A program made the position numbers and the translations under genes. The notes under the pieces were generated by a model that worked only from the letters and a program-made list of their open reading frames with translations, was not told where the DNA came from and did no database searches. From Cladosporium halotolerans (lineage: Eukaryota), in assembly GCF_011745625.1 (NCBI RefSeq), contig NW_027191479.1, positions 186,001 to 250,000 of the forward strand: a DNA stretch of 64,000 nucleotides, read 5' to 3'. Shown piece after piece: positions 16,651-59,140 of the stretch (positions are counted from its first letter, which is position 1; each line of letters begins with the position of its first letter).

Positions 16651-18236
16651 TCAAAGCTCATTTCTCTTCCTCGCATTCGCCGCTTGAGGCGGCGGCGGCT
16701 GGACCTTCAAGATCGCCCTCTTATACCTCCTGATCGGCGGGGTCCCACTCCCCGTCACCTCCAGAATAACATGATATTGCTCGCAAACATCCTGCACACC
16801 CTCCGGCGCCCACAACCCCGGCCCCGCCGCGCACGCCACTTCCGCCTCTGGCAACCTCGTCGTCACCACATCCCCTCTCGCACCTCCCATCACCGTGAAA
16901 TTCAGCTGCGCCACCTCATCCACAGTCCCTTGCATCGTATTGATATCCCGATACTGCCACCACTTGAAACCCAATCCCCCGTGCCCTGCCACATCCGCAT
17001 CTGGATCCCACGTCCCGCTCGCATCCAACACCACCTCCTTCCCAGGCTGTACTTCCAGCTCTAACGCACCGCTCCCGCACGACCCATTCATTCCCACAAC
17101 CGGCGGGTGCGAACCCCCCTCTCCAGCTCCCTGCAAACTCCATCCCACTCGCGCCGCCATCTCCTCCTGGTACGCCCGCCGCCACCTCCACACGCTCGCC
17201 TGGTTCGACGAGTACGTCACGTGGTCAACACCTACCACGACATCCGCCGTGTCGGCATAGTGCATGCTCTGCCGGCTCAGATCCACGAGTCTGTACCGAC
17301 CTCCCCATCCACCCCATTCGGGGTGGTCTTGCGGCCCGCCGTTTACTCCGTTCTGCATCGTGTGCAGGAGCGCGGGCGAGTCGCCTTCCATTAGATAGAG
17401 TGTATCGGGGTAGAGGCTGCCGAGGGGCCCGCGTTGGAAGTGCTGCGAGATGTAGGCGGGTGAGACGAGGGAGGGGTCCGAGCCGGGGGTGTCCTGGTAG
17501 GGTTAGTTGGTTTGACGAAGGGAGGTAGGAAGGGAGGAAAGGATGAATTAACTCACGGCATCGCCGCTCATCCCCATCCACGTCGCGCGACTATACTGGT
17601 TCCAAGCGTGGACGGACGCAATATACGGAATCTGCGGGAAGTTCAGCCGGATCCACACCCCGGCGTTGTCCTGGTCCGAGATCGTGTACACGCGGATCTT
17701 GCGCGTGAACTTCTCCAGGTCGTATTGCGTCCTCGTCCCTCGGACGTGCGCGAGCGCTTCGCCCAGCACGTTGACGCCGCCCCAGGCCTGGCAGTGTAGG
17801 ATGCTGTCGTCGGGCATGCCGTCGAGGACGGCGATGAGGTGTGCGGCGCCGGAGGAGAGGGGGCGGCCGATGGCTGCCGTGCCGTAGACGGGGTGCCCTG
17901 ATTTGGCGATTGAGGAAAGGTAGGTGGCGGTGGGAAGGTGCCGGCGGAGTGGGAGTTGAGGTTGTCGACGACGGCGCCGTAGGCGGTGGTTAGGTCGAGG
18001 ATTGCGTTGGGCGTTGTCGTGCTGTTCAGCCAGTAGCTTGTTGTGGCGACCATGCCGGTTATGGTGTATTGGTCGGAGTGCAGGAGGAGGCGGACGAAGG
18101 ATTGCGTGTCGTCGGGTTCGTTCGAGATGTCGGACATGATGAAGACTTGGGGTTGGGCATCGATTTGAATTGCTGGTGGGCATCTTTGTGTCACGGCGAG
18201 CCCTGCTAGGAGCAGAGCGATGGCGAGATGCTTCAT
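16651..18236 (-). CDS. Secreted DUF1593 (Sde182 / nucleoside-hydrolase-like) protein; apparent 1-nt frameshift at about 17933
   Basis: Signal peptide, VFIMSDISNEPDDTQSFVRLL, QAWGG, VYTISDQD, MEGDSP, WGGWGGRY, LDASGTWDPD. Intron at about 17555..17496. The reading frame breaks in a C3 run. Confidence 0.8.
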
Positions 18237-18793
18237 GGTGGTAAGTGGTGATTGTCCAGTGACCAGGTACCGAACAGGCTCTTCATGTCGAAGTGACGAG
18301 GAGCAAGCATGGCTATAGTTTTATTCAGCGGGAGCACAGCTCGGTGTAATGTCTTCCGTAGCCAGATGCCAGAGAATGCCAATCGTAACTACAAATAGTT
18401 TATCTCATCGCCATGCTCCACACGTGGGGAAGTGTGGAGATCAAAGAATCCGGAGAGACTGGCAATGGCCCTGATCATCTCTTGCATCGGCAGTCAAGAA
18501 CAACGAGAATGCCGGCCTCACTTACTTAATCCCTTGAAGAGGACTTCGAAACGTCTCAAAGTACTCTTCTTTGCTGGAAGGTTGCCTTAGCCGTGGGGGC
18601 TGAACTATAGAGTCTCCACCTATATGACATGCACGTTGTCGGACTTCACGAGAAGAGCCGAGGCGTCTTCCGTGAACGCTACGTACCATGTCAGCTGTAA
18701 CCATTAAGCGTGATTTCTAGTAATACTTTTGAATTGACCGTCAGCCTGAGACTCAATTTGACCTTTAGCCCTTCGCCCACAGATCTTGTGATA

Positions 18794-19755: not shown

Positions 19756-20856
19756 CGTCCAGTGGGGCTTGCAATCCAGCGCCATCGTGCCGTATAATGT
19801 GAATGACCTGATGAGGATGTTATTGCGGTGGTATCGTGAGCCAATCTAAAAGAGGGCGAAAGCATTTCTGCTTGACAACGACAAGCTTAAGCGGTAACGC
19901 TGAGGAGGAACGAAGATCCGACGGGAAGTAGCTACCACGCCACCGTAGCCGTGTTGAAAGCCTGTCGATTTCTGTGGCGGACTCCATGTGACTTTTCCTC
20001 TCGCATGAATGTAAGTCCTGCTCCGAGGTGCCGTCCGACATCGTTCACGAGTCGTGGTACGACCAGCCATCCAGCGAGGCGATGCCCCGGTGAATTGGGC
20101 TTAGGTTCTGTTGCGAACATTCCCTTCGACAAGGCTCGCGGCCCGTTTTCCCGTGGCGCAAAACTCAATGCCAAAACCCGCTTCCGGTTATTATCACTGA
20201 TGAAGAAAGATGTGTCCGCCGAGCCCAAGTGCAGCCCAAAGGCGCGGGGTTCTGTAAATTTGCGGAGAAGTGATCTGTCCTTTGTCTCCACTTCATCAAC
20301 ATGCCGCCGCAACCTTTCCGCTGCAGGCACGGAGCAGGCACAGCAAAACCCGGCTGAGATGTGGCTACGAGAGGGAATCTGGTCCCCCGTGTCTGGGCGT
20401 CCATCTTTACGCCTAGCCCGTCTCTGAGCCGCATCCATACTTTCCTCTCCAGGCGATTACATTGGACACATTCGGTGGCAATTGAGCGAGCCGCCGTCTA
20501 AGCGAGTCGCCATTGGACTCCAAATGGCGGACTCAATGCAATATTGGACCTTTTCCAGGGCCTCGCAAGATTTACCGAGGTGTCTTCAGAGGCTGAGCGT
20601 GCTGATGTGCAGACCTCGTGACCGTTGCCAATACACGGCGTCTGAAACCGCAATCTAGAGCAGCCCTCGCAATCTCGGACCGTGTCTGCTCTCGACCATA
20701 CCCAAACACGACGCGATCTGCGCTTTTTCCCTGTAGTGTTGCTGCGATGGGCAATTATTGGCTGCTGCCGGGTGAGCTATATAGGAATGTCGCTCTCCAT
20801 GATCTGAGATACTCATCAATCCAACCACACTGAACTTCGCTCTTCTCACAGGCACC

Positions 20857-22268
20857 ATGGCCCACAAGCTGGCTTTTGTTTTGTCTTCAGCGCTGGCTAT
20901 TCAATCGGTCTTCGCTCAACAGCCAGGCAAAATTCCCGAGAAGCACCCAAAGTTGACCACGCACAAGTGTACCAAGGCCCGTGGCTGCACTGCTCAAAAG
21001 TCCTCCCTTGTTATTGACTGGAACAACCATCAACTTCAACAGAAGGATGGCTCCTCTTGCGCCGTAGGTTCTGCAGCCTGCTTGGACGATGCCACCTGCA
21101 ACAAAAACTGTGTTGTCCAGGGCGTGGACTATCTTAAGGCTGGTGTCCGGACCTCGGGAGATTCGGTGACGCTCAACCAGTACACACCTAACGGCAATGG
21201 AGGATACAACCACGCCTCGCCAAGAGTCTACCTGCTCGACAAAAAGGGCGATAAATACGAGAGCGTCAAACTCACAGGTCAGGAATTGGTGTTCGACGTC
21301 GACGTCTCGACTCTTCCCTGCGGCATGAACGGTGCCCTGTACCTGTCCGAGATGGACATGTCCGGAGGAAAGAGCAAGACAAACCCCGGTGCCGCCTACG
21401 GTTCTGGTTACTGTGATGCTCAGTGCCCCAAGTTGAGCTGGTTTAATGGCACTGTGAACACTGGATCGCTTGGCGCGTGCTGCAATGAGATGGACATTTG
21501 GGAGGCGAATGGCCGCGCCACAGGGTACACGCCGCACCCTTGCAGTGTCGAGAGCATTGGCGGCTGCACTGGCGCGGACTGCGAGTTCAACGGAGTCTGC
21601 GACAAGTGGGGATGCGGCTTCAACCCCTACGCCATGGGACGCCAGCAGTACTATGGTTACAACAACTCCTTTACTATCAACACGTCGAAGAAGTTCACCG
21701 TCTTGGTAAGTTTGAGGTTCTCTCAAAATCACTTGAGATGTATGCTGACCACTACCCAAAGACCCAATTCATCACCGACGATGGTACCACCTCTGGCACT
21801 CTGATCGACGTCCGCCGCACGTACATGCAGGACGGAAAGGTAATCGCAAACGCCAATGCCACCAGCGCATCGGGTCGTGAGGGCCTTACAAGCATCACTG
21901 ATGTATGTTTCCCGTCCATGTCCAGAGAAAACAAATCTAAAAATTCCCAGGAATACTGCGACGCCGCAAGCACCGAAGGCAAGCGCCTCGGCGGCCTCGC
22001 CACCATGGGCGGCGCTCTCGAGCGCGGCATGGTCCTCATCTTCTCGATCTGGAACAGCGACGGCGATTTCATGAACTGGATGGACAGCGGCAATTCCGGG
22101 CCTTGCAATGCCACTGAGGGCGACCCCAAGCTCATCCTCGCGAACCAGCCGGACACCCACGTCACCTGGAGCAACGTTCGCTGGGGTGATATTGGGTCCA
22201 CGCTCCCCAAAGCTGGCCCGGGACCCGTCAAGCCGACTTCGCCGAAGCCGAAGCCGCCGCACAACTAA
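20857..22268 (+). CDS. GH7 endo-beta-1,4-glucanase (Cel7B/EG I type), no CBM
   Basis: Signal peptide then Gln. SPRVYL, LPCGMNGALY, GYCDAQC and catalytic EMDIWEAN; loops are short compared with the CBH at 37576. Introns 21706..21761 and 21903..21950. Pro/Lys-rich tail. Confidence 0.92.
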
Positions 22269-31555: not shown

Positions 31556-33099
31556 TCACAGGCACTGCGAGTACCAGTCGTTCGACTTCTGGCAGGTGCT
31601 GCCGCTGACGCAGCAGAACGGTCCATTCCATCCATTGCCCTGTCGAATTATCAACATTTTGAAGCCGCTTTCGCAATTTGCGGGAAATACTCACGCCACA
31701 CTGGCCCCATTTGGACGCACAGTTTCCAGTTGGGGAAGGAGATGAAGTTGTCCTGGTTGTGGTTGCGGTTGAAGTGGTTCTGGCCGTGGTCGAGGTTGTT
31801 CTGCTGGAAGTAGTCGACGTGGCAGTGGTGGTGCCGCCGGATCCAGAGCCGGCGAAAGCAGATTGCAGGATCGGCATGTAGGCATTATACGCAGCGCCAT
31901 TGGTAGGCTCAAGGCCGTACATGTAGGTTCCCCACCACGGTCCAGCAGCCCACCAGAGAGCGCCTTGCCACACGTCTATCGGGGGGTCAGCGATGAGCGA
32001 ATGGACAGTGAGAGCTTAAACCTACCAGAGTTATCGTTCATGTACTGGAGCATGCCCGCGATGGCAGTCTGGCACTGGGCGTTGACACCTCCCGCGAACT
32101 CGCCGATAAGACCGATCTTCTTGTTGGCGCGAAGCCAGTTTGTAGCCGCCACGAGACGTTCGGCACCAACCGTGGAGGACACGCAGTTGGGAGAAGTACC
32201 GGATCCATCGGTGTCAAGGTATTGGTGCATCTGGTAAACCAGCTTGTTCTCAGGGTCGGTGAGCGAGCCCATCAGGTCACTGAAGCGGCGGTCAGCACGT
32301 TCTAATCCCCTTTGCGTGATGCTGTCGCCAAGTACTTGCGCATTCGTCTTGCCATCAGTGCCCTTGGATGTGGTCCATGTCCAGGCACCAGTCCACGCTG
32401 TTTGAGATATCAGTATGCTGCTGGTTGCGGCTCGTAGGCATTAGAGGAGACAAACCGTTGCCTTCCACATTGATCGTTTGCTTGGCACCCGCAGCGCGAA
32501 TGCCGTTGATCGCAGCCTGATTGAGCTGGACAACGAGTGCAGTGGACATGGTGTGAAACCTGACAGTAGTTTAGCAACCAAGAGGGACCCCATCAAACTC
32601 AAATTCACTGGAAGAAGACGCACTCGTTGTTCGTGTCCCAGATGACCCTGGGATTGTCCTTGTAAACAGTTGCAACGGTCTGCCACCATTTTCCGAAGGC
32701 GGCCGCATCGGTAATGACCTCCTTGTAGTACCGCCCGTAATTGTGCGGCTGAATCATGGCATATGCGCCCCTGCTAGTCACGTAGTTGACCTGCTCGGTG
32801 AGGTTGCTGAGGTACGCCGGATCAAGGGAGCCTGTCATGCTGTTCGGGATCAAACGCTCCATGTAGAAGTTGATTCGGAACGTATTGAAGCCGCGCGCGA
32901 TAAAAGTGTCGTACGTAGACAGGGTGGGCCAGATGTAGTCCTTGCCGTAGAGGCCTGGGAAGATGCCGTCGCCGAACTCAGGGCCGCTCTCGTTGACGCC
33001 CACCCACTGCATCTTGCCGGCGCGTTTGGCCACCCTGTTGGGAGCTGAGAGCACGAGCCCCAGCGTGCTCGCCGCGGCGAGGAGAGAGACGAAGTGCAT
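31556..33099 (-). CDS. GH5 (subfamily 5-like) endoglucanase with linker and C-terminal CBM1
   Basis: Signal peptide, [24 protein letters not shown] (acid/base), [19 protein letters not shown] (nucleophile), WWAAGPWW, Thr-rich linker and [21 protein letters not shown]. Confidence 0.93.
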
Positions 33100-33694
33100 G
33101 GTGAGGGGGCAACTGTGGAAGGTTGGAAGAGAAAGAGAGCTGATTGACTTGCAATCGTTGTGGTCCAGAGAGAAGGGAAAGTGGAAAATATTTATAGTAT
33201 GCCAAGGGCATCCCTTATACCATCAAGCCTCGCCAGTTGATTTCATTCGCCTTCGTTGTCCTGGTAGTCCGGCGTCTTTCCGGACGACCTCAGCGGAGGT
33301 GAGGTCTCCGGAGCCCCGGAAAGTAGATCTCGGCTCGAGGCGATGGCTTGGATATAGTCTCTCTAGCCCTACAAAGAAGAAAAAGCGCCATTCCGTTGTA
33401 GGCGAGGCAGGGTCGTACAGGTGCATGCGGCTCAAAGCCCATACCGCCTCGTTTTCCGATACGGAGCTCCATGGTCCGTCGGCTCTTGCACTTGTGGGAC
33501 TCGAGCATCTACACCCATGGGAAGCCTCGCTAAATTGCTCTTTGTGCGCGCAATATGGCTGTCATGTCTTACTTCCGACGGTCATGTCTGTGTTGGCGCG
33601 CGAATGTCACGCGTCGGGCGATGTTACACAAGGCCATGACATGTGGAAACGCGTGCCGATCGTGTACAGCACGAAAGTCGCAGATCAGCGTGCT

Positions 33695-37248: not shown

Positions 37249-37575
37249 ATGGCTGGCACAGACTTTGACTGGCTACACAAGGACGGGCTCCCCTCTCCGT
37301 TGTCTGTGCCCTACTCCAGGGAATGGCAAGTCATGGCCGGTTGTGGAACAGGCTCCGTAGGACCTCTCCTCCGACGGACCGCGCGAAGACAGCAACTTGT
37401 GGGCCTATCATCCTAAGAACTAGGGCAGACACCACGATGCGGCGAAACCTGCTGTAAGTCGCTTGCCATGAGCGTGTTTTTCAGGCAGGTGAATCGTATA
37501 AAAGTCCTTGTCGCCGCGGACCAGTCGTCCATCTCCAGCAAGCCCATCAGTAGATTCTCCGACCAATCTGCAAGC

Positions 37576-39547
37576 ATGTCTGCCTTCTCTCTCGCCCTCG
37601 CCGCCCTCTCTTTGGGTTCGGCAGTCCACGCTCAGCAGGCTGGTACTCTTACTCCGGAGAGGCACCCCGCCCTCTCCGTATCGACCTGCACCGCCAGCGG
37701 CTGTACTGCTAAGACGCAAAGTGTCGTCCTTGACGGCAACTGGCGCTGGCTCCACTCCACCTCGGGCTCGACCAACTGCTATACCGGCAACGCCTGGGAC
37801 CCCACCCTCTGCCCCAATGGAGTCACCTGCGCGGCTAACTGTGCCATGGATGGCGCTGACTACTCCGGCACTTATGGTATCAAGACTTCTGGCAACCAAT
37901 TGAGCCTGCAGCTCAAGACGGGCACCAATGTCGGCTCTCGTGTCTACCTCATGGATGATCAGGACAAGAATTACCAGATGTTCAACCTGAAGAACCAGGA
38001 GTTCACCTTTGATGTTGACGTCAGCCAGCTTGAGTGTAAGAACCCAAACATTTCGACTAAAACCTTGGGTTTCGCTGATAACGATCCTTAAGGCGGCCTG
38101 AACGGTGCGCTCTACTTCGTCTCCATGCCAGCTGACGGCGGTGTGTCCGCGACCAACAAGGCTGGTACCAAGTTCGGAACCGGCTACTGTGACTCGTAAG
38201 TTCCCATGAATGCCATCAATGGCGCGCGAACGTAGTAGACTGATGACGGTATGACAGCCAATGCCCGAAGGATATCAAGTTCATCGAGGGCAAGGCCAAC
38301 GTCGAGGGCTGGGGCGGATCCTCCAACAACCAGAACACCGGAGCTGGCGGCACTGGTAAGTGAAATCACCTTGGACATCCAGATGAGCGCTCTAACATTG
38401 CCAGGTTCTTGTTGCCACGAGATGGACATCTGGGAGGCCAACAAGATCTCCACTGCCGTGACTCCTCACGTCTGCGTCCCAGGCAACGCTCCTTGCACGA
38501 CCGATGTCGACTGCGGTGCTGGCGATGGCAACCGCTACAAGGGCTTCTGCGACAGGGATGGTTGCGATTTCAACCCTTGTAAGTCTGGCAAAACCCACTC
38601 GAACTCCCCTTGGCTGACGTTATGGCGCAGTCCGCATGGGCAACCAGAGCTTTTACGGCCCGAGCAAGATTGTCGACACCACCAAGCCTATGACTGTTGT
38701 GGTAAGCACATTGACCGCGGTGCGTGTGTGGTACAGCTTAGTGACCTCGTCTCCAGACTCAGTTCATCACCTCCGACAACACCGCCAACGGCGACCTCGT
38801 GGAGATCCGCCGCCTCTACGTCCAGAACGGCAAGGTCTTCGGTCAGCCTACGTCCAACGTCGCCGGCGTCACCGGCAACTCTGTCACCGACAGCTTCTGC
38901 GCAGCTCAAAAGTCCGTCTTCGGTGACAACAACCACTTCAGCACCAAGGGTGGCATGAAGGCCATGGGCGATGCCTTCGCCAAGGGCATGGTGCTCGTCA
39001 TGTCTCTGTGGGACGACTACGAGGTCAACATGCACTGGCTCAACTCCCCGTACCCTCTCGATGCTCCCGTCGACAAGCCCGGTGTCGCCCGTGGCACTTG
39101 CGCCAGGGACTCTGGCAAGCCTGCAGACGTCGAGGCGAAGTACCCTGGTGCTACCGTCAAGTTCTCCAACCTCAAGACTGGCCCCATTGGTTCGACTTAC
39201 TCTGGCACCCTCCAGCCCGGTGGAGGCAGTGGATCTTCCAGCTCTTCTTCTTCCTCCAGGACTTCGAGCACCAGCTCCACCTCCAGGTCGAGCTCGTCGA
39301 TCACCACCACCACTCGGGTCAGCACCACTTCCACCACTACCTCCAGGGCGACCACCACTACGGCGTCCGGCGGTGTTGCTCAGAAGTGGGGACAGTGCGG
39401 CGTAAGTGCATCATTCTCCAGCAAGTCTCACCCACTTTTTCACGCGTACTGACTTTCATCCAGGGCAACAACTGGCCTGGCCCCTACGTCTGCGTCAGCG
39501 GCACCACCTGCACCAAGGTCAACGACTGGTACTCCCAGTGCCTGTAA
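37576..39547 (+). CDS. cbh1: GH7 cellobiohydrolase I with linker and CBM1
   Basis: Signal peptide then Gln, [39 protein letters not shown] linker and QKWGQCGG...[12 protein letters not shown]. Six introns. Confidence 0.95.
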
Positions 39548-55659: not shown

Positions 55660-56360
55660 CGTGCCAGCACAAGAAGGATGAGTAAGGATTTAGTGAGATA
55701 AGGTCAATGAAAGAATGTCGAACTTAGGGCTTAGGGCTCGATTGTTTGAGCGGCGTCGTCTTGTATAAGTAGACGTTCTTCGGACCTCACTATGAACGAG
55801 ATCGCCATACTATGATCGAGCCCTCCAAGCGAGGGTTGCCGATATATTACAGAGCATCAAACCGTGACATGCATCGTGGAGGCAGCGACTTGGCGATTTC
55901 TGGGCGATGTATCGAAGATGAACTCTCTTCTTCGGTTCCAGCACTACCAACTCGATGGAGACGGTCACCCGTTGGCACGTTTTCTTGGCACGTGGTGATG
56001 CGACGTTTTCAGAGCAGCGGGCGTTTCGAGTTGAGCGATTGCCGGAGAGCCGACGCTGGCCTGGCTAGACGCGTGCGCTTGCGATTCATCGAAAACGATT
56101 AAGCGTCAACCTAGCAGCCACCCTGAGTCATGCTAACAACCTCTTTCTCCGCATAGCTTGAGTTATACGTGGACTCCGAACGATCAGCGAACAATTAGTC
56201 GTCTCAACAATCGGAACCAATGTAACGTTAGCACGAAGCTTATTGAGGGGGTCGGAAACGCTACTAGTCACGGCTTTCGCTTGAGAGCCGTCGAGGATGC
56301 TACTACTGCTGCTACTGCTTCTACCTAAACTACGATACTGATAGACCCTTGATCCTAAAC

Positions 56361-57490
56361 CTACGGAATCTCATGCAAAATTCGATCTCCTTCCTTCGGC
56401 GGCTCGAGGAAATCCTGAGGAACGCTATCTGGCATTTGACGTTCTTCTGCCCATCTCCTAACATCATCAAAGTTCCGGCAGATATGCTTGGTGTTGAAGT
56501 CCACGAAAGCATGAGGCATCTCATTCGGGTTTGATTGAATCCAAACTTGTCCGAGCACGCCGATGTCGATAGTACACATCAGTTGTTGGCGTAGGATATC
56601 AAGACAGTGAGCTGCATAATGTGAGATTGAGTTGAGCTTCCTGCATGTGCAAGCTGGGACTTACAGACGTGCTTCCGGACAATGTGTTCTTCATTCGAAA
56701 AAGCACCTTTCCCTTGAGTGTTATAATAGTTGAAGTTATAGTAGAGTGACTGTCGCAGAAGATTCTATCGCACGTTAGTCGTGGACAATTGAAACACCTG
56801 AAGTACAGCCTTACAAGACAGTGCAATTGATGTCTTTGAATATTCATAGACTGCATCAGCTCTTGTCTACCGCTTGGTATCTGATTTGACTTACTGCGAA
56901 CAGTATCAGTCTTCGTCCGTGAAGGAGGCATACAAGGTTGACTTACCAAGCCTTCCACATTCGCTGGGTAACCTCCTCCATACTTCTTGTTAACCTTGAC
57001 TTGATCTCGGCGTAGGCCTGCCTGGTCTGCAAGTGTCTCTGGCACCGCAATACTACGATCTATGTTCTCCGTCAGCATTGCATTGTTGTGAGTATACTAG
57101 GGCGGTCGTACAGTTGACACCCAAACCCTCCCACGCCGCATCAACTTCGGGGCTCGCAGCCTGTCGGTAGATATTCTCTTTCAAGAGTGACCCGTTGAAT
57201 CTTTCCTCTTGGAACGTGATCTTGACATCCTCGGTGATAGGTGATGTCCGGGTCACCACGCAAGTGCAAGAGGCAAAGCGATACCACAACATGAATCCAG
57301 CAAGTAGCTCAAGAATAAGTAGAACGATGACTATCACGAGAATGGTGTTCTGGAGCGGTACGAAGCCAATGCGACTTGATCGTTTTTGGCAACGCCCTTC
57401 CGACGAGCCGACCAATTCTTCGCACTCATGATCGTCGCCCAGTGAGGCTACTTTCCCATAGCGTTCGCCCCAATGAAATAGTGATGCCAT
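56361..57490 (-). CDS. DUF3328 / UstYa-family oxidase (fungal RiPP macrocyclase type)
   Basis: Exons 57490..57112, 57059..56948, 56833..56815, 56764..56665 and 56611..56361. N-terminal TM, VDAAWE, EGLHQLHCLNLLR and HVSHCLDILRQQLMC (two HxxHC motifs), HICRNFD. Confidence 0.93.
56834..56947 (-). other. Candidate [D1,2] stwintron (intron nested within a splice donor)
   Basis: Minus strand reads TT-G|GTAAGT...CTGAT...CAG|TAAGTC...CTGAT...AAG|ACATCAA. Removing 56946..56894 rebuilds a GTAAGT donor, and the second excision yields EGL-HQLHC. Confidence 0.75.
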
Positions 57491-58792
57491 GTTGCCCAAG
57501 GTCACCAAACGGATGAACAAGAAGAGCCTCGGACGTCAAGATCTTAATAATTCGACAGGTCTGTAATATGGCAGGCGGATAAGCCGTCAATCCTAGACAC
57601 ATCGCGGTCGTGCGTGACTTGCCTCGAGACGTAAACAACTCACGTGGGGCCAGGCTTGCGCCGACTTCAAGAGTATTGGAACCGCTCACCACACTGTTAT
57701 GCATATCGTTTTACCACCTTACCAGTCATGAATCTGGAACATCACACTGCGGTTGGTGTTGTTAAAGGGTGAAGGCGCTGATCTCACGACCGTTCGGTAG
57801 CATGAATTGGTCTCGCCACCATGGCAAAGCGCGGGACGCCACAATAGCTAGAGCTCTTCAACTGCGCAGCACGCACTACCTGGGTATCGATAGCGGGGTG
57901 ATTACAACGCGACTCGGACGTCATGTCATACTCAGCATCTGTGTGAGCGTGCACAAATTTCTAATCAACAGCACTACAGTAGTAACTCGTCCCTACGAAA
58001 GCTTGACCAGCTTGGCAGGCTCAATCAAGATTTCTTATGCGAATGCCAATGGAAGCGCTAGGCTAGGTGAGTTCACGTTGTTGTTGCTACGACCTTCTTG
58101 AACCTTCCAGACGCCATGACTGGTGATCACGTATCTGCATCAGGGCAGATCTCGCCATCAATGACACAGAATATCTCAAAGTGTTCCGGTGTAGACACAT
58201 CTTCGGATAGCGAGAGGTCTGCCACTCGGCCCACTGTCTCTATGTTTCCGTGGCTGGAAGAGTCGACACGGGAAGACAAGAAAACCTCCGGCACGATACT
58301 TTCAATAGTGCTTACGGTTTTGTGAAAAGAGAGACTCCTAGATCGGGTTCGGAGCTTTCAGATCTCCAGGATGAAGCAGTGTTGACCAGCTTTCCCCACT
58401 GAAGACGCGTTAGCGTCGCTCGTCGAACCGAGAGCCATGTCCAAAGGTGGACACGATGGTCCCTCAGCTTTCGGGAGAAACCTAGAAAGTGTCATTTCTA
58501 TTGAACGGCGGCCTGCACCAGTTGTGGTGACGATCTCGTCACCCTGAGTGCAGCTCTGCTGATGGTCACGTAATGTCTCGGAAGTAGGAAGCTTGAGCAG
58601 CGACTTCAGCGGGCGTGAGGAGACCAAGCCTTGCAAAGGCATATAAGACTTAGAAGGCGCGGAGGGCGAAGCTATATTGCTTCCAAGTCAGTTCTCACTC
58701 TCAGGTTCTTGTTGACCAGTGCCCCGAATTGACGTTCCTACTTCCAGCATCTACATAGCCTTACCGCACCTACGGGTCACACATTCGCCGTC

Positions 58793-59140
58793 ATGAAGCT
58801 CACAACCTTTACGCTTATCTTCGGAGCGTCTCTATCAACAATTGGTAACGCAGCACCGGTGGACAGGAAGCCTGAAGCTGCTGAGGTCTCTGTAAGAGAC
58901 CCAGCCGAGTACTCCGACTATGGCTCGTACCCGCCACTAGCAGGAGGCTACGGCGAATACTCCAATTATGGGACATACCCACGCGACGCCGATCCTGAGC
59001 CCCAGCCTGAAGCACTCGAAGCCCGAGCAGGATACGGGAAGTACAACCCCTACAGCAAGTACGGCAAATACGGCAAATACGGCAATTATGGCAGCTACAA
59101 GCGCGAGACTGAGGCAGAGGCCGGACCCGAAGCTGCGTAA
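58793..59140 (+). CDS. Secreted Tyr-rich Kex2-processed repeat protein; putative RiPP (dikaritin-type) precursor
   Basis: 115 aa intronless ORF: signal peptide, basic cleavage sites (VR, PR, AR, KR), X-P/X-A acidic spacers and 15 Tyr in YxxYxxY register. TATAA at about 58642. Divergent from the DUF3328 gene. Confidence 0.85.
   Translation: MKLTTFTLIFGASLSTIGNAAPVDRKPEAAEVSVRDPAEYSDYGSYPPLAGGYGEYSNYGTYPRDADPEPQPEALEARAGYGKYNPYSKYGKYGKYGNYGSYKRETEAEAGPEAA

Follow-up and report, generated by a model that had tools for sequence, protein, structure and literature searches.

Donor-disrupted [D1,2] stwintrons (spliceosomal twin introns) are a rare but already described type of intron. In the lipS genes of Aspergillus nidulans and A. 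niger, an internal U2 intron lies between nucleotides 1 and 2 of the donor of an external intron (PMC5639578). The A. niger stwintron associates a 52-nt internal with a 57-nt external intron, and its splicing intermediate was confirmed by RT-PCR (PMC5639578). Sister [D1,2] stwintrons were reported from Hypoxylaceae and Xylariaceae, where they form sequence-similar families with near-terminal inverted repeats; the same source mentions occasional missplicing, nearly the whole stwintron leaving as one canonical intron (PMC12403724). One of them, HE7c050A, is listed in Table S1 of that publication on a Xylariales contig: it measures 167 nt (76 + 91), is in phase one, and is located downstream of the second HxxHC of a gene annotated as encoding a 294-aa DUF3328 protein. 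Concerning this protein family, the HxxHC(x)nHxxHC motif of CctR was described as forming a binuclear copper centre essential for activity (PMC12435403), and DUF3328 genes are already known, as a general pattern, to be paired with Kex2-processed repeat proteins (PMC7329392).

We report here a 114-nt element at positions 56947..56834 (minus strand) of a 64-kb stretch of Cladosporium DNA, hereafter the window, which is very probably a [D1,2] stwintron in a UstYa/DUF3328 gene; its mature junction was seen in transcript contigs, and the order in which its two parts leave would be that of the lipS type. As in lipS, an internal U2 intron separates nucleotides 1 and 2 of the external donor, both halves have an ordinary fungal intron size and a codon is split (PMC5639578). 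The gene and the position differ from lipS, however, and the lipS intermediate was cloned and sequenced where the present locus offers the mature junction only; moreover, the lipS position is old and shared across classes, whereas the Cladosporium position appears lineage-specific (PMC5639578). In this last respect it is closer to the Hypoxylaceae and Xylariaceae sister stwintrons, which are of the same type and also sit at new positions unoccupied in relatives (PMC12403724). It differs from HE7c050A in its size (114 nt, 53 + 61), its phase (2) and its location before the first HxxHC. The preliminary description of the locus, which was aware of no DUF3328 gene with a stwintron, has to be amended on this point in view of HE7c050A as given in Table S1 of PMC12403724: the family is not new for stwintrons, and the novelty lies in the position and the lineage. 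The text of the other stwintron literature searched holds no mention of DUF3328 or UstYa, and the supplement of PMC9024468 no DUF3328 entry. The locus is thus a well-supported new example of a described type.

The oxidase gene lies on the minus strand and its transcript extends at least over 56295..57715. Apart from the stwintron, it is organized as follows, X20 and X21 being two of the sequencing runs compared below.

56361..57490, minus strand, UstYa/DUF3328 oxidase CDS, ATG to stop, five coding exons (gene model, Pfam PF11807, spliced contigs)
57561..57622, minus strand, 5' UTR intron, 62 nt, GC..AG (GCAAGT..CAG) (joint 57560/57623, X21 record 13 only)
57112..57490, minus strand, exon 1 (CDS part), N-terminal region and hydrophobic helix (gene model, contigs, Pfam)
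57060..57111, minus strand, intron 1, 52 nt, GTACGA..TAG, phase 1 (joint 57059/57112 in X20 and X21)
56948..57059, minus strand, exon 2, ending in GAA GGC TT (record 10 of X20 and record 12 of X21)
56815..56833, minus strand, microexon, 19 nt, A CAT CAA TTG CAC TGT CTT, encoding HQLHCL (record positions 415-433 in X20 and 180-198 in X21)
56765..56814, minus strand, intron 3, 50 nt, GTAAGG..TAG, phase 0 (gene model, contigs; position widely shared in the family)
56665..56764, minus strand, exon 4 (gene model, contigs)
56612..56664, minus strand, intron 4, 53 nt, GTAAGT..CAG, phase 1, splitting the second HxxHC (HVS|HC) (joint 56611/56665 in X20 and X21)
56361..56611, minus strand, exon 5, through the stop codon (gene model, contigs, Pfam)

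The assignment to PF11807 (UstYa, formerly DUF3328) is given by exon 1 (36.3 bits) and the last exon (63.9 bits), while exon 4 alone (14.7 bits) falls under the cut-off of 25 bits. Identity to the named Aspergillus 'oxidase ustYa family' proteins is at most 58%, over 60% of exon 1. The spliced product contains HxxHC(x)nHxxHC in the form HQLHC ... HVSHC, the first of these copper-binding motifs being carried by the 19-nt microexon between the stwintron and intron 3. By its PF11807 match and this double motif, the protein is predicted to resemble the binuclear-copper oxidases of the CctR type (PMC12435403). Both copper motifs of the gene depend on exact splicing.

Within the 114 nt, the minus strand reads GGC TT G|GTAAGT...ACTGAT...CAG|TAAGTC...GCTGAT GCAG...AAG|A CAT CAA TTG CAC TGT, from which the following parts were delimited.

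56834..56947, minus strand, [D1,2] stwintron, 114 nt, net GG..AG, phase 2 (absent from X20 and X21 contigs, present in run X19; grammar unique in the window)
56894..56946, minus strand, internal intron, 53 nt, GTAAGT..CAG, branch site ACTGAT (sequence and grammar; predicted to leave separately, in a first step)
56834..56893, minus strand, external intron minus its first G (56947), 61 nt once joined, acceptor AAG (sequence; use of AAG from the contigs)

The internal U2 intron begins at the second nucleotide of the element, after G56947, and has a donor (GTAAGT, 56946-56941), a branch site (ACTGAT, 56910-56905, branch A at 56906) and an acceptor CAG ending at 56894, 12 nt further on. Immediately after this acceptor, a T opens the donor-like TAAGTC (from 56893), so that a complete GTAAGT is obtained only once the internal intron is removed and G56947 is brought against it. 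The external intron possesses its own branch site (GCTGAT, 56860-56855, branch A at 56856) and its own acceptor, the AAG ending at 56834, which is 22 nt downstream of the branch A, is used in the RNA contigs and is followed by A56833. A CAG is present at 56851 between this branch site and the AAG, and it is skipped in the RNA contigs; this arrangement is unusual, though the CAG is only 5 nt past the branch A. The letters and coordinates given in the preliminary description proved right throughout, as did the sum of 53 and 61 nt, and its remark that both lengths match other introns of the window agrees with the 52, 50, 53 and 62 nt of the other introns of the gene.

The consequences for the reading frame were obtained by script assembly from the window coordinates. 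Joining 56948 to 56833 restores the Leu codon split by the stwintron (TT|A) and gives an open CDS of 861 nt, which contains the stretch NVEGLHQLHCLNLLRQ. Removal of a single intron from the same donor to the same acceptor (56946..56834, 113 nt) shifts the frame, and removal of the inner intron alone exposes a TAA stop. Two other forms remain in frame: a 96-nt intron (56946..56851), which adds SMNIQR, and retention of the whole 114 nt, an open read-through of 38 codons. The frames announced beforehand for the Leu codon, the one-step form and the SMNIQR form were recovered in this way.

Four sequencing runs (X2, X19, X20 and X21) were compared as contig assemblies, in which rare forms are lost. 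In run X19, which is DNA-like and from which the window itself may derive, a single contig spans 56000-57900; it is identical to the window and retains the 114 nt. Run X20 originates from the same sample as X19 and X21 from a second sample of the same study, so that the transcript evidence comes from one study. The library kind of X20 and X21 being unrecorded, we infer that they are RNA from the lack of introns in their contigs, the lack of depth inside introns and their short contigs (the longest 6.7-7.5 kb). X20 record 10 (983 letters, depth 20.6) aligns in the blocks 56298-56611, 56665-56764, 56815-56833, 56948-57059 and 57112-57549, and X21 record 12 (644 letters, depth 11.4) in the same blocks up to 57178; in both, the record positions are unbroken, with no other letters and no gaps. 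The joints 56611|56665, 56764|56815, 56833|56948 and 57059|57112 are therefore common to the two runs, those flanking the 19-nt exon being read from the table of aligned pieces and absent from the joint table. On the minus strand the junction cannot slide, since G56947 differs from A56833 and T56948 from G56834, and the mRNA therefore lacks exactly 56947..56834, a segment starting with GG and ending with AG. The predicted junction GGCTT-ACATCAA, expected to appear to aligners as a GG-AG intron, is thus present without mismatch in contigs of both runs.

Two kinds of doubt can be raised against this junction. The first is that it is an artefact, produced by misassembly of RNA contigs or by a strain whose DNA does not contain the 114 nt. 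The evidence consists of assemblies, not reads, and of a single study; against this, the identical junction was found in two separately assembled runs, X19 retains the 114 nt in the very sample from which X20 derives, and the junction restores the family frame and motif exactly, which makes an artefact extremely unlikely. The second is that the main transcript is the 96-nt intron form (EGL-SMNIQR-HQLHC) or the 38-codon retention, the stwintron product being minor. Both forms are in frame, and minor isoforms could be lost from contigs; nevertheless, every contig covering the site (of the two records aligned for X20 and the three for X21) carries 56948|56833, the CAG at 56851 is very close to the nearest branch A, and the six additional residues of the 96-nt form occur in none of 19 aligned homologues. 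We regard this explanation as very unlikely. Neither of the outcomes named in advance as contradicting the stwintron (sole use of the 96-nt intron, or retention) is present in X20 or X21, and the search of their contigs for the 96-nt intron, the 113-nt one-step form and retention found none of the three, nor any contig of the intermediate devoid of 56946..56894 only, rare and minor forms being of a kind that could escape contigs.

The route leading to the mature mRNA can be approached by enumerating the canonical possibilities. In a first step, the spliceosome would excise the 53-nt internal intron through the GUAAGU at 56946, the branch A at 56906 and the CAG at 56894. G56947 would then meet UAAGUC to form a new GUAAGU donor and, in a second step, the 61-nt external intron would leave through the branch A at 56856 and the AAG at 56834, this acceptor being the one documented by the RNA contigs. 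The product, as read in those contigs, is GGCTT joined to ACATCAA, with the Leu codon (TT+A) and the family motif EGL-HQLHCL restored. Since inner-first then outer is the sole GT-AG route to the observed mRNA, which cannot be obtained with any single canonical intron, we infer this two-step order. Only one other internal AG is followed by T; it ends at 56851 and would leave an outer intron of 18 nt. As in the alternatively spliced [D1,2]/[A2,3] stwintrons (PMC5587772, PMC5639578), the G of the inner acceptor and the following TAAGT also make a GTAAGT at 56894, and two overlapping introns can be drawn. For the [A2,3] route, however, the downstream exon has to open with G (PMC5639578); it starts here with A56833, so that prior removal of 56894..56834 leaves no acceptor, and only the [D1,2] route gives the mRNA.

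The same mature mRNA would also be obtained by a one-step, non-canonical GG-AG excision of the 114 nt, with cleavage one base upstream of GTAAGT and a merely coincidental internal acceptor and donor, and the intermediate that separates the two routes is not observable in contig data. To our knowledge, GG donors are essentially unused by U2 spliceosomes. The one-step excision moreover needs a complete internal intron to be present by chance. Among 200,000 random 114-mers starting with GGTAAGT, an internal branch site and an AG followed by a donor-like T[AG][ACT]G[TC] were found in 228, and the strict form AG|TAAGT in 8. In addition, the two-step route was experimentally demonstrated for stwintrons of the same build (PMC5639578). 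A one-step GG-AG event consequently appears improbable. When the full grammar (G|GT donor, branch site, AG|T-donor, branch site, AG) was searched on both strands of the window, a single match was obtained, which is the stwintron site; 200 Markov-1 simulations gave a mean of 0.005 matches, with any match in only 1 of the 200, and the grammar is thus more than a chance occurrence. Taken by itself, the loose two-donor pattern has no informative value, with 10 occurrences in the window for 4.34 expected.

The comparison with relatives bears on the history of the site. Aligned to the product of the two-step route, 13 of 19 homologues display EG[LF]H[HQ]LHCL without gap. The remaining six comprise three frame-shifted ORF calls and three Aspergillus predictions without the motif. 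The ORF calls, made on relatives' contigs (P0001, P0004 and P0013), read exon 2 in a shifted frame, and their sequences are compatible with a contiguous EG[FL]HHLHC. Four Aspergillus database predictions (P0016-P0019) are aberrant at this place, three of them lacking the first HxxHC and one having a long in-frame insert right after HCL, reminiscent of a retained intron; this short segment has probably been misannotated in these predictions.

At the DNA level, EG[LF]HxLHC is contiguous in all 80 related metagenome loci, a set biased to contiguity by one of its two search patterns, which requires it. The other search pattern (FNGSLLKE) is also held by 18 of the 80 loci, and the motif is contiguous in 18 of these 18. 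Among the 80 loci, 62 different sequence contexts can be distinguished, and transcripts probably account for some of the loci. In 39 of the 80, a GT directly follows the HCL codons, at the position of intron 3 of the window. In a rough check, tblastn breakpoints in the related loci were concentrated around the positions of introns 1, 3 and 4; as an intron map they were set aside as too coarse, short in-frame introns being read through. The contiguity of the site in all related loci, in a set biased in this direction, makes the stwintron look like a lineage-specific gain, most likely by insertion into a coding stretch that was otherwise continuous. Its apparently newly occupied site lies beside the older and widely shared intron 3, an arrangement that would have created the microexon.

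No second copy of the stwintron was detected by blastn in the 64-kb window or the 80 related loci, where only chance-level matches of 10-15 nt were found. Folding of the 114 nt revealed no end-bridging structure (-20.5 kcal/mol, z = 0.42; an equal or better fold in 123 of 200 shuffles). The ordinary fold and the single copy in the window would set it apart from the sister stwintrons of Hypoxylaceae and Xylariaceae, with their families of similar sequences and near-terminal inverted repeats, as described in PMC12403724. The nearest named relatives of the neighbouring mitochondrial carrier ORF are Dothideomycetes (about 82% identity), which places the organism outside the Xylariales with their catalogued stwintrons.

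The fourth run, X2, has another organism label. It is mostly 90-99% alike the window, DNA-like (it covers introns) and without depth in 56832-56895. One 140-letter contig of this run, at 56930-57067, shows no difference from the window and stops at 56930, 18 nt into the stwintron. Other X2 pieces differ from the window by about 4-10%, which suggests the presence of two related genotypes in the run.

The neighbourhood of the gene was also considered. About 1.3 kb upstream of the oxidase, the sequence contains a divergent ORF.

58793..59140, plus strand, divergent ORF of 115 aa with a signal-peptide-like N-terminus, Tyr/Gly-rich YG.Y repeats and a KRE site

A 9-nt tandem array occupies 59051-59093 in this ORF. 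Similar Tyr/Gly-repeat ORFs, upstream and on the opposite strand, were found in 18 of 47 related metagenome loci, counting redundant contigs, the 47 being those with upstream DNA of 1 kb or more. Many KRE-separated units are present in some of these ORFs; locus L011, for example, has many GYGKY...KRE units. The 115-aa ORF is a possible RiPP precursor for this oxidase, and the arrangement looks like a conserved pair of an oxidase and a Kex2-processed repeat precursor, that is, a candidate RiPP cassette predicted from gene order and repeats. A classic multi-gene RiPP cluster was rejected, as neither a methyltransferase, a tyrosinase nor a second UstYa was among the Pfam matches of 98 ORFs; these matches comprised SDRs, the mitochondrial carrier, CorA, an Nse2-type zinc finger, a KH protein and cellulases. 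The window also contains two GH7 cellobiohydrolase genes, one with a CBM1 tail, a GH5 cellulase gene and an Sde182-like gene, at 20803-22265 (+), 37417-39544 (+), 32608-33222 (-) and 16654-18320 (-). This gene set points to a putative plant-biomass-degrading fungus.

The preliminary description presented the stwintron as controlling the assembly of the active-site exon. This wording is unsupported: both runs just show fully spliced mRNA, the fold is ordinary and no alternative product turned up in the contigs. An extended form of the idea can be formulated, in which the stwintron would have been inserted recently, in this lineage only, where the coding sequence of the oxidase is most conserved, and would now act as a splicing gate. 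The productive mRNA would need a slow inner-then-outer order, the 113-nt one-step excision (GT at 56946 to AAG at 56834) would shift the frame before the copper site, and the ratio of the two routes would set the amount of active oxidase relative to the divergent Tyr/Gly-repeat precursor. The frame-shifting 113-nt excision would be the counterpart, at the Cladosporium locus, of the missplicing described in PMC12403724. We consider such a gate improbable.

The locus adds a clean, transcript-supported stwintron from outside the Xylariales, the order of most catalogued cases. It provides a data point on the origin of complex introns at new sites and on the creation of microexons, the site being uninterrupted in the relatives examined. 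The in-frame read-through and the GG-AG-looking junction imply that gene callers are likely to mis-annotate the first copper-binding motif of this oxidase, and the apparent pairing of the oxidase with a Tyr-rich precursor makes its correct annotation relevant to RiPP mining.
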